A DNA stretch of 64,000 nt from Eubacteriales bacterium (GTDB lineage: Bacteria; Bacillota; Clostridia; Oscillospirales; CAG-272), in the NCBI GenBank assembly GCA_045653805.1, contig JAZOMF010000094.1, positions 7,438 through 71,437 on the forward strand, read 5' to 3'. The position numbers and the translations under genes were made by a program. The notes beneath the pieces are model-generated. The model was not told the origin of the DNA. It saw only the letters and a program-made list of their open reading frames with translations, and made no database searches. This document shows positions 19,662 to 21,673 of the stretch, one piece after another (within the stretch, counting starts at the first letter, position 1; each line of letters starts with the position of its first letter).

Positions 19662-19967
19662 ATGACAAAGGTTAGAATAACCGTTATGTGCCGCGCGGAG
19701 CATGCCGCTCTTATCGAAAAATATGAAAACCCCTTGGAAAATCCTTGTGAAATGACCGTTGGCGACGTTTTCGTGTCGGTGAATGCGGAAAAGCCCGAGG
19801 GAATGTGTTCGGTGGCGTGGGACTGTATGTACGAGTTTGTCAAAACTCTCGCCGAGGGTGGAGGAAACTTTTTCGATGGCTGGATGAAAGACCCTTACTC
19901 TGCAATGGTAAGCTGTAACGATGGATTTCGCCCCGTGACTTATTATATCGAAGCGATAGATGAATAA
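19662..19967 (+). CDS. TIGR04076 family protein
   Basis: KVRITV, ENPCEM, KPEGMC..AW, SCNDGFRPV signature. Confidence 0.88.
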   Translation: MTKVRITVMCRAEHAALIEKYENPLENPCEMTVGDVFVSVNAEKPEGMCSVAWDCMYEFVKTLAEGGGNFFDGWMKDPYSAMVSCNDGFRPVTYYIEAIDE

Positions 19968-20022
19968 GCAAAAGAAGGAGCATAAAGCGGACTTCTCATA
20001 AGGATGTTTGGATATTCTTCTT

Positions 20023-20049
20023 GTAGGGGTCGACGTCCTCGGCGACCCG
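20023..20049 (+). repeat. GTAG-family REP copy 1
   Basis: GTAGGGGTCGACGTCCTCGGCGACCCG: GTAG foot plus GGGTCG/CGACCC hairpin. Confidence 0.92.
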
Positions 20050-20280
20050 TTAAGGAAAATTTGATCCGCAGAAGACAAATAGATAACCCCGACAGATTTT
20101 TAAATTCTGTCGGGGATCATTTTATTCTGTTAGATAAATTGTATTTATCCAACTGTATTCAATTTGAAGATACCACCTTGAAAAACAATATCATTTCCTT
20201 GAGCATCTTTGTAAAACGATACATTTTCCGTTAACTCAAAGCCTAAACTCTTTAATAAGGATAGGCAAAGCCCATACCTC

Positions 20281-20796
20281 TTATTCTTCTGCATATAATT
20301 CATCGAAGTACCAGCGGACAGGGTTTTCGTAAATGTATTTCGCGATCTCCTCGTAATCCTTTCGTCCTCTGATAACGTGATCGTAAAATCCTCGTTGCCA
20401 TATATTCTCGCCGTATTCTTTATTGCAAAATCTTTTGAACGTCGATACAAAATGCGACACGAATGACGTTTGCTTTGTAGGGGTCGACGTCCTCGGCGAC
20501 CCGTCCTCATGAACAAACAATATAAGATGGATATGGTTTGGCATAATAACGTATTGATCTACGGTTAAATTTTCATAAAATTCATTCATTTGTTTTATGT
20601 ATTTATCCGCAACCATTCCGCGTGGCAACAATTCCACGTTCTGCGGGTCGCCGAGGACGTCGACCCCTACGATTCGAGATAAAATCTGTCGCCTTTTGTC
20701 CGTGCAAATCGTTATAAAATATGCACCTGTTGTGTTGTAATCAAATGCCTGTAACCTGGTAGGTTTTCTTTTCGGCACTTCATTTTCTTTATCCAT
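20281..20796 (-). CDS. REP-associated tyrosine transposase (RAYT, HUH/Y1 family)
   Basis: RKPTRLQAFDY..GAYFITICT, MPNHIH (HUH), FKRF, WQRGFYDHVIR, YIYENP. Confidence 0.92.
   Translation of the reverse strand: MDKENEVPKRKPTRLQAFDYNTTGAYFITICTDKRRQILSRIVGVDVLGDPQNVELLPRGMVADKYIKQMNEFYENLTVDQYVIMPNHIHLILFVHEDGSPRTSTPTKQTSFVSHFVSTFKRFCNKEYGENIWQRGFYDHVIRGRKDYEEIAKYIYENPVRWYFDELYAEE
20477..20503 (+). repeat. GTAG-family REP copy 2, inside the RAYT CDS
   Basis: Identical 27-mer; read as (D)GSPRTSTPT on the coding strand. Confidence 0.92.
20644..20670 (-). repeat. GTAG-family REP copy 3, inside the RAYT CDS
   Basis: Identical 27-mer on the minus strand; read as VGVDVLGDP. Confidence 0.92.
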
Positions 20797-20866
20797 TTTC
20801 ATCACCCATTTCATTATAACACAAATCGGCAGAGAAAACAATATCTCTGCCGAAATTTGGTTGTGG

Positions 20867-20893
20867 CGGGTCGCCGAGGACGTCGACCCCTAC
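20867..20893 (-). repeat. GTAG-family REP copy 4
   Basis: Identical 27-mer on the minus strand. Confidence 0.92.
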
Positions 20894-20944
20894 GGTGTAA
20901 TCATCCTTATGTAAATTTGCGCCAATACTCCTTCTTTTAGTTTG

Positions 20945-21673
20945 TCATAGATTGATATTGACCTTTTCAACCATTTTCCTCTTGTCTTTATAGTCTGGCA
21001 CGAAGGGGGAAAGCTCGGCATAATAGCTTTTAGAGTGATCCGGATGAATAAAATGTGTAAATTCGTGATATACCACGTATTCGATGCAATCCACGGGGGC
21101 GTGAACGAGAGCGTAATTGAAGGTCAATATCCTTTTGGTTGAATTACAGCTGCCCCAACGGCTCTTCATGTGCCTGAATTTTATTTCGGGCATATCGGGT
21201 ACATATTTTGTAAAGCATGGATGTGCGTCGGTGCAAATGCTCTCTATCATTTCTCGGCATAGCTCGTCAAGGTGCTTTTGCAAAAGTCTTTTCTTCAAGT
21301 CGATGTCCTCGGTATCCTTGACGGTAAGAACAAGATTACCTCCTACCATTTCCACTCGGTTTTTGCTTCCTTTTTGGATAGAGAGCGGAATAGGATCGCC
21401 AAATATTATGATATTGTTGACGTCATCGAGCCCGACAAGAATTTTTTGTGCAGATGACGACAAATCTTCGTATTTTTGCAGAGCAGAGAGGATAAAATCA
21501 GATTTTTCCATAAGTATTCTGTCTATATCCCCTTGTGATACTTTCATCGGCGCCGAGACGTGAACTGTAAGATCGCGTTTTATTCGAATGTTGACATTTT
21601 TGACTTTTTTTCGTTGCAGGTCATATTTTACCGCCCTGCCTGATAAAATGATAGATTTTGTCATTTTGATCAT
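20945..21673 (-). CDS. M48/SprT-like (YgjP type) zinc metallopeptidase
   Basis: RKKVKNVNIRI, MKSRWGSC, YVVYHEFTHFIHPDHS; exact start uncertain (21664-21676). Confidence 0.9.
   Translation of the reverse strand: MIKMTKSIILSGRAVKYDLQRKKVKNVNIRIKRDLTVHVSAPMKVSQGDIDRILMEKSDFILSALQKYEDLSSSAQKILVGLDDVNNIIIFGDPIPLSIQKGSKNRVEMVGGNLVLTVKDTEDIDLKKRLLQKHLDELCREMIESICTDAHPCFTKYVPDMPEIKFRHMKSRWGSCNSTKRILTFNYALVHAPVDCIEYVVYHEFTHFIHPDHSKSYYAELSPFVPDYKDKRKMVEKVNINL

Follow-up and report, generated by a model that had tools for sequence, protein, structure and literature searches.

A RAYT gene of a gut Clostridia genome carries in-frame copies of its own kind of REP hairpin on both sides of its HUH motif

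Four identical REPs within and around a RAYT gene

The DNA analysed here is a stretch of 64,000 nucleotides from an Eubacteriales bacterium (assembly GCA_045653805.1, contig JAZOMF010000094.1, positions 7,438 to 71,437 of the forward strand), hereafter the window, to which all coordinates refer. It contains a small minus-strand gene encoding a REP-processing enzyme (RAYT) and four exact copies of the 27-mer GTAGGGGTCGACGTCCTCGGCGACCCG, whereas no match is expected in 100 dinucleotide-preserving shuffles. On the sense (minus) strand of the gene, the copies are arranged in the order forward, forward, reverse, reverse, with the GTAG heads outward. Contigs (C), loci (L) and genomes (G) are designated by numbers: C79 and C84 are other contigs of the same assembly, and L035 is the locus of a relative whose protein is 94% identical. 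The features are as follows.

20867..20893 (-): upstream flanking REP (REP1 in gene orientation, GTAG head outward), an exact 27-mer between the 3' end of the YgjP-like gene and the inferred RAYT promoter; the equivalent position in L035 holds a diverged REP variant, and metatranscriptome contigs carry other REP types at this junction (loose ends at 20864).
20813..20852 (-): conserved upstream module, read directly from the sequence, consisting of a 9-bp-stem hairpin (CGGCAGAGA...TCTCTGCCG, 20827-20852) followed by an extended -10 (TGTGTTATAAT; TATAAT at 20813-20818); the same module precedes the paralogue RAYT-3 on C84, the RAYT-less cassette on C79 and L035, and its promoter function is inferred.
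20281..20796 (-): RAYT-1 coding sequence, 171 aa plus stop, with the HUH codons at 20527-20535 and the catalytic Tyr154 codon at 20335-20337.
20644..20670 (-): internal arm 1, a GTAG hairpin on the coding strand, read as VGVDVLGDP (residues 43-51), predicted to form the tip of an inserted beta-hairpin.
20504..20643 (-): 140-nt cassette between the arms, encoding ...VDQYVIMPNHIHLILFV, that is, helix alpha1 and the two strands that carry the HUH motif in the structural model.
20477..20503 (+): internal arm 2, a GTAG hairpin on the template strand, read on the minus strand as GSPRTSTPT (residues 99-107), in a predicted disordered loop just before helix 112-128.
20087..20115 (-): terminator-like hairpin downstream of the RAYT (CCCCGACAGA...TCTGTCGGGG); a similar hairpin closes the C79 cassette, and its function is inferred.
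20023..20049 (+): downstream flanking REP (REP4), an exact 27-mer that is apparently polymorphic, as one contig in a public sequencing run (X1) replaces 20009-20088 with AAGAA.

The minus-strand open reading frame 20281..20841 starts at a TTG at 20841, but the most likely start is the ATG at 20796, preceded by a GGGTGA-like ribosome-binding site. The product scores 26.1 bits against Pfam PF01797 (cut-off 23) and 73 bits against the NCBIfam equivalog NF047646, REP_Tyr_transpos (cut-off 80). E. coli TnpA_REP (PDB 4ER8) is the best solved relative by sequence (E 6.5e-7) and by fold: a Foldseek search with the AlphaFold (AF2) model (pLDDT 82.3, pTM 0.77) returned 4er8_A as the top hit (E 1.7e-7, TM 0.57/0.59). 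The HUH motif is PNHIHLI; H88, H90 and Y154 are invariant in 111 aligned sequences, and Y154, the single tyrosine of the YxxxNP helix, aligns with Y115 of 4ER8 through the YIYxNP register (residue roles from PMC3479197). Each repeat is a GTAG-headed imperfect hairpin made of a 6-bp stem, a purine-purine mismatch, 2 more base pairs and a 4-nt loop, at about -13 kcal/mol.

A first-pass annotation, made from the sequence alone, had described two perfect 27-nt REPs translated in opposite orientation on either side of the HUH motif, as part of four identical copies. This observation is confirmed, with one change of emphasis: the identity of all four copies is a peculiarity of this genome, as in relatives the flanking copies are usually absent or of another type.

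Three paralogues carry three palindromes at the same two codon positions

The window lies in a 1.76-Mb, 99-contig assembly (45.7% GC, 91.6% complete). Its closest named relatives are uncultured Eubacteriales and Oscillospiraceae from animal guts, and the public runs that hold the sequence are bovine and other gut metagenomes. The genome holds 152 GTAG hairpins, against 30 in the reversed control, and 78 type-1 REPs in compensatory variants: variant A (GTAGGGGTCGACGTCCTCGGCGACCCG) has only 6 copies (4 here and 2 on C79), variant B (the same with the T..A stem pair changed to A..T) about 34, variant C (the same with G..C) 3, and variant D (GTAGGGGACGGCGCCCTCGACGTCCCG) about 35. Eleven doublets (heads inward, tails outward, 85-nt spacing) share a conserved spacer and flanks, and often combine a D arm with a B arm. 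Many contigs end in a REP.

The genome encodes three RAYT paralogues at 48-50% identity, and all three carry an inverted pair at the same two positions. RAYT-1 (contig C94, this window) encodes VGVDVLGDP / GSPRTSTPT (variant A). RAYT-2 (contig C18) encodes VGDGALDVP / GTSRAPSPT (variant D, with about 35 dispersed copies), and its forward copy is duplicated in frame. RAYT-3 (C84) encodes VGADSISAR / RADMESAPT from GTAGGGGCGGATTCCATATCCGCCCG, which has no other copy in the genome. The extra in-frame REP of RAYT-2, together with about 33 nt 5' of it, aligns with the spacer-plus-REP of the dispersed doublet, which indicates exchange between internal and dispersed copies.

The internal pair is conserved in most relatives

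We next asked whether the internal pair is shared by related genes. A word-indexed search found 4,494 homologues. Among the best 120, the two peptides covary exactly as reverse-complementary DNA predicts: VGDDVLGVP with GTPRTSSPT, VGGDVLDAP with GASRTSPPT, and VGADVLGGP with GPPRTSAPT. A minority have discordant pairs, and several have in-frame tandem duplications at either site. In 80 loci from different species (41-94% protein identity), 76 have GTAGG-headed arms on both sides of the HUH; 66 have at least 20 nt with at most 3 mismatches, 27 are perfect over at least 24 nt, and 48 of the 76 keep the arms within one mismatch. GTA is a valine codon in phase 0 in all 76, and at least 12 unrelated palindromes occupy the sites. 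Some relatives have decayed or single arms (L060, L086, L094, L135), so the pair is not strictly required.

A variant-tolerant GTAG-hairpin finder, used in place of an exact-match census that under-counted diverged variants such as the upstream REP of L035, detected the internal pair in 72 of 80 loci, but an upstream forward hairpin in only 7 of 74, a downstream reverse one in 7 of 68 and both in 1; as the finder still misses imperfect hairpins, the flank counts are lower bounds. The four-copy arrangement of this window is therefore the exception. In L035 the upstream REP is of a diverged type and the downstream one is absent. A protein-level reverse-complement test on 150 representatives showed strict VG.../...PT pairs in about 40 of 146 representatives of 50%-identity clusters; this is a lower bound, because the test returns the first compatible pair, and the weaker offsets, which gave false positives (5 of 146 shuffles), were not counted. 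A phylum-wide sample collected with NF047646 mostly returned a longer family (250-350 aa open frames) that our HUH/Tyr motif filter did not pick up, and provided only contrast cases for the inverted-repeat test (L115, L116, L135), so that the layout is described here for gut Clostridia. Canonical RAYTs showed no HUH-bracketing repeat above the null.

Conservation of the hairpin at the DNA level

To determine what is conserved, we compared codons for identical residues within the close RAYT-1 clade. They differ at a rate of 0.052 in the 18 REP codons against 0.411 elsewhere, and of 0.032 against 0.329 in the strict subset, i.e., synonymous divergence is 8-10-fold lower in the REP codons. On 46 distinct type-1 arms, GTAG is invariant, 90.1% of cells pair, and five of nine pairs change on both sides; pair 8-23 uses all four Watson-Crick types (UA 15, AU 13, GC 11 and CG 7) with none unpaired. 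Double-change cells number 53, against 12.5 +/- 2.6 in shuffles (0 of 500) and at most 11 when partners are slid. Column pair 11-20 is a purine-purine mismatch conserved in 39 of 46 arms, which recalls the bulge that E. coli TnpA_REP needs for binding (PMC3479197). Where the two arms of one gene differ, 26 differences are compensatory doubles that keep each arm's own stem. G.T wobbles lie on the GTAG strand in both arms (9 and 8), whereas A.C on that strand is nearly absent (1 and 0); for arm 2 the better-paired strand is therefore the template DNA strand and not the mRNA, although this rests on about four independent REP types.

By contrast, the peptides lie in inserted loops. The AlphaFold model places residues 43-51 at the tip of a beta-hairpin (strands 40-43 and 53-56, pLDDT about 64) and residues 99-107 in the least confident loop (96-111, below 50 at 104-107), between the HUH strand and helix 112-128. 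E. coli TnpA_REP has a 10-residue gap at the second peptide, and a canonical Bacillota RAYT has gaps at both segments. In the alignment with 4ER8, helix 112-128 corresponds to alphaC, which enters the minor groove of the REP (PMC3479197); the second loop therefore abuts the helix predicted to bind DNA.

Internal repeats match dispersed repeats and can exist alone

In genomes carrying type-1 RAYTs, REP copy number ranges from 2 (G017 and G014; in G017 just the internal pair) to 66 (G007). G007 has three RAYT-spaced pairs, and the variants in them match its three dispersed variants, although the third pair mixes two of them. All five genomes with at least 8 type-3 REPs have a RAYT-spaced type-3 pair, and two of them (G009 and G336) were not chosen for that type. 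G332 and G329 (type 3) and G321 and G323 (type 2) hold only the internal pair of the given type. A 2x2 comparison of REP type against RAYT type is consistent with cognate matching but is confounded by multiple paralogues per genome, and does not constitute a formal test. Two observations do not fit this matching in the present, 91.6%-complete assembly: no RAYT carries the abundant variant B, which differs from RAYT-1's variant A by one compensatory base pair, and two REP families (about 25 and 17 copies) have no cognate RAYT.

No inverted or deleted cassette was found

To test whether the REP-bracketed segment inverts or is lost, we examined loci, proteins and reads. All 80 loci align contiguously over residues 1-171 with none inverted, including 17 in which a first motif pattern had not detected the HUH, and about 270 homologous proteins all keep the HUH in place. 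No joints appeared in three raw-read runs and one contig run compared with 19900-21000, nor in three metatranscriptomes and one run labelled metagenomic RNA-Seq compared with 19950-21000, and one 490-nt contig spans both arms in the reference order; however, the organism is scarce in the raw-read runs and the power is low. Inversion would keep the reading frame downstream of the cassette, but the inverted cassette has a stop two codons after arm 1, so that it truncates the protein and offers no alternative cassette.

In a naked transcript, the 27-bp arm-arm duplex would dominate the ensemble (probability 0.99, MFE -90.7 kcal/mol, against about -13 for each local hairpin). Metatranscriptome contigs show that the gene, or a close relative, is transcribed from the 5' UTR through the cassette; no contig extends beyond arm 2, but at a depth too low to interpret. 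A terminator or attenuator reading of the arms was rejected because no T-run follows either hairpin.

Interpretation

Taken together, these data favour, with moderate confidence, the view that the two inner repeats are conserved, functional copies of the RAYT's own substrate, one on each DNA strand, each written in frame into one of two permissive surface loops that flank the HUH strands. In this view, selection acts on the nucleotide hairpin and the encoded peptides are tolerated passengers. Because Y1/HUH enzymes bind single-stranded GTAG hairpins, the enzyme would most likely bind these sites in cis when its gene is single-stranded during replication or transcription. This arrangement would keep enzyme and recognition site as one inseparable, co-evolving unit, which persists even when no dispersed REP exists, and from which dispersed REP or doublet families can arise or with which they can exchange sequence. 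Feedback on the gene's own expression would be a likely by-product or second role. The conservation of position and phase, the hairpin covariation, the synonymous-site constraint, the loop location and the type-matching with dispersed REPs are shown by our analysis, whereas binding and cleavage of the single-stranded REP, donor or seed activity and autoregulation are inferred, all support being comparative. The similarity of the two arms could also come from gene conversion between inverted repeats rather than from shared recognition.

The interpretation offered by the first-pass annotation is thus only partly supported. The inner repeats are genuine GTAG-type REPs translated inside a RAYT, they lie in predicted surface loops that are insertions relative to canonical RAYTs, and the peptides track the cognate REP sequence across homologues and paralogues, a point on which that annotation had staked its reading. 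Its suggestion of ongoing homogenisation is consistent with the concerted evolution of the two arms, but that of a recent insertion fails, as the two positions and the phase are conserved in 72-76 of 80 species with many different palindromes. Its proposal of inversion, excision or swapping of the active-site cassette has no support, and its proposal that pairing of the two inner REPs in the mRNA limits expression remains possible.

Two other explanations remain possible, although we consider each unlikely. In the first, the arms pair in the transcript into a duplex enclosing the HUH-coding region, or form two stable hairpins, and either would limit translation or trigger RNase III cleavage, keeping a dangerous nuclease scarce. 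The dominance of the long-range duplex, the near-identity of the arms in 48 of 76 loci and the distribution of the metatranscriptome contigs, at very low depth, agree with this reading, which is physically plausible, may operate and is not exclusive of the favoured one. However, arm-arm pairing does not require each arm to be a GTAG-headed palindrome, yet all are; when the arms differ, the changes are compensatory within each arm and break arm-arm complementarity; and for arm 2 the wobble pairs fit the template strand. In the second, REPs insert preferentially beside the gene that makes the enzyme, only in-frame insertions in two permissive loops survive, and gene conversion with dispersed REPs keeps functionless copies looking fresh. 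REPs do land in frame in other genes (Di Nocera 2013, PMC3733652), extra in-frame copies occur at both sites, one of which aligns with the dispersed doublet, and the loops are disordered insertions in the model. Nevertheless, position and phase are identical across 41-94% identity, perfect pairs persist in genomes with no dispersed copy to convert from, synonymous divergence is markedly reduced, and flanking insertions, which should be less constrained, are far rarer than the internal pair. Finally, a self-directed DNA switch is very unlikely: although perfect 27-bp inverted repeats lie 140 bp apart and the mixed arms of one G007 paralogue could reflect exchange between paralogues, only one orientation was observed, the inverted form would be truncated, and Y1 enzymes need both ends on one strand whereas the two GTAG heads are on opposite strands.

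A further, tentative possibility is that the internal pair is the heart of the system, a RAYT of this clade being a self-addressed nuclease gene whose substrate is physically inseparable from its catalytic segment. The in-frame pair would be the long-lived master copy from which dispersed REP and doublet families are repeatedly born, latent in genomes that have only the two internal copies and bursting to dozens of copies in others. Because site and enzyme are one locus, hairpin and protein specificity would co-evolve. If so, REP families may originate inside RAYT genes rather than beside them, and RAYT groups reported as lacking flanking REPINs may carry their repeats internally.

REPs are defined as extragenic, and the accepted REPtron picture, a RAYT gene bordered by its repeats, leaves the question of how repeats and enzyme stay matched over long times. 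In the large clade described here, the enzyme's own kind of hairpin is written twice into its reading frame around the catalytic motif, with clear nucleotide-level constraint. This provides a natural, sequence-readable record of enzyme-substrate co-evolution, with dozens of hairpin types at fixed codons that are amenable to direct tests with oligonucleotides and recoded genes, and it may explain why some RAYT groups seemed to lack associated repeats. The practical consequences are modest: these repeats break metagenome assemblies, and the REP-coded peptides inflate apparent protein diversity.

Comparison with known REP and Y1 systems

Full-text searches, which did not reach subscription-only papers, and reading of the core papers (PMC2817692, PMC3333891, PMC3479197, PMC3733652, PMC5581495, PMC6006769, PMC8266576) found no mention of REPs inside a RAYT coding sequence. 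The closest system is the E. coli REPtron, TnpA_REP with its REP/BIME sequences (Nunvar 2010, PMC2817692; Ton-Hoang 2011, PMC3333891; Messing 2012, PMC3479197; Corneloup 2021, PMC8266576). Both have a Y1/HUH fold (predicted for RAYT-1), an HUH motif and a catalytic Tyr, the substrate-like repeats have a 5' GTAG, an imperfect stem with a conserved mismatch and a short loop, and each enzyme paralogue goes with its own repeat type. However, REPtrons are described as coding sequences bordered by palindromes (Corneloup 2021), whereas here the palindromes lie inside the coding sequence, in frame and on opposite strands, bracketing the HUH; flanking copies are present in this window but are the exception in relatives, and E. 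coli TnpA_REP lacks both inserted loops.

In the REPIN-RAYT systems of Pseudomonas (Bertels & Rainey 2011, PMC3116915; Bertels 2017, PMC5581495), as here, inverted REP doublets with a conserved spacer are dispersed through the genome (11 doublets at 85 nt in this one), and the RAYT genes are vertically persistent and are not themselves duplicated as IS-like copies. The internal pair could fold as a long hairpin, as a REPIN does, but REPINs are extragenic and flank the RAYT, whereas the internal pair is a single-copy segment inside the gene with heads outward and a 140-nt coding spacer, different from that of the dispersed doublets. Bertels 2017 scored only extragenic flanking 16-mers, and we infer that an internal pair would have been missed in the groups reported as weakly REP-associated.

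The IS200/IS605 insertion sequences (IS608, ISDra2) encode related Y1 transposases that recognise, on single-stranded DNA, subterminal imperfect hairpins with a 4-nt guide 5' of the hairpin foot (PMC3479197). The IS hairpins are at the element ends, both on the same strand and outside tnpA; here they are inside the gene on opposite strands, and the gene itself shows no sign of transposing. Lastly, Rickettsia RPEs and intragenic GTAG/CGTC REPs (Di Nocera 2013, PMC3733652) are also short palindromic repeats translated in frame within permissive parts of proteins. Those insertions are scattered over unrelated host genes and sites, whereas here the host gene is the cognate enzyme itself, and the two sites and the phase are fixed across a large clade.

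A REPtron-like cassette without a RAYT and the upstream module

Outside the window, the only other two copies of the exact variant-A REP, the variant carried by RAYT-1, are found on contig C79 of the same assembly (C79:38794-39717), where they flank, with their heads outward, a cassette of roughly 900 bp. This cassette has the same upstream hairpin-plus-TGTGTTATAAT module as the RAYT-1 locus, and a similar terminator hairpin. However, it carries no RAYT, but only other palindromes and a 162-aa ORF with no Pfam match, and it looks like a REPtron shell whose cargo was replaced. The C-terminus of this ORF resembles the N-terminus of the product of the gene located downstream of RAYT-3 on contig C84 (locus L032:2127-2591), which has a DUF4304 domain (E 2.5e-10): IEYSKSYLK in the C79 ORF against IEYAKSYLK in the RAYT-3 neighbour.

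The upstream module itself (window 20813-20852), a conserved hairpin (CGGCAGAGA...TCTCTGCCG) followed by an extended -10, precedes several RAYT paralogues; it is also present upstream of RAYT-3 on C84, on C79 and in L035, a locus from a related species. Its summed depth in RNA and DNA contig sets is very high (44–540, against 3–7 for the gene), showing that the module is itself a widespread repeat. In addition, contigs continue from it into REPs of other types. On the downstream side of RAYT-1, one contig in the gut metagenome run X1 replaces the 80 nt at window 20009-20088, which include the downstream flanking REP, with AAGAA, a possible empty-site allele.

Variant architectures and dispersed repeats

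At locus L096, a degenerate second RAYT fragment (residues 25-44 and 74-89; L096:4289-4484, minus strand) lies about 1 kb downstream of the intact gene, on the opposite strand. In L135, from a genome of the same order, a RAYT-3-like gene has REPs upstream and immediately after the stop codon, both in the same orientation; it has an internal arm 2 (ERADNKSAPT) but no arm 1, giving an intermediate architecture between the classical and internal layouts.

At the level of the whole assembly, two further GTAG-hairpin families have no cognate RAYT in this assembly: GTAGGGGAGGGGCTTGCTCCTC (about 25 copies) and GTAGGGCGGGGGYTTRCTCCCG (about 17 copies). However, in other genomes the same palindromes sit inside RAYT genes (loci L062 and L110; L066, L074 and L084). 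Many contigs of the assembly also end within a REP. Finally, the dispersed REP doublets, present at 11 sites of the assembly (e.g., C8:17556-17667, C48:23892-24003 and C62:34110-34221), form an element of about 160 nt with a conserved 58-nt spacer and conserved outer flanks. The two arms of these doublets are often different variants, D on one side and B on the other, rather like the y/z REP pairs of E. coli BIMEs.
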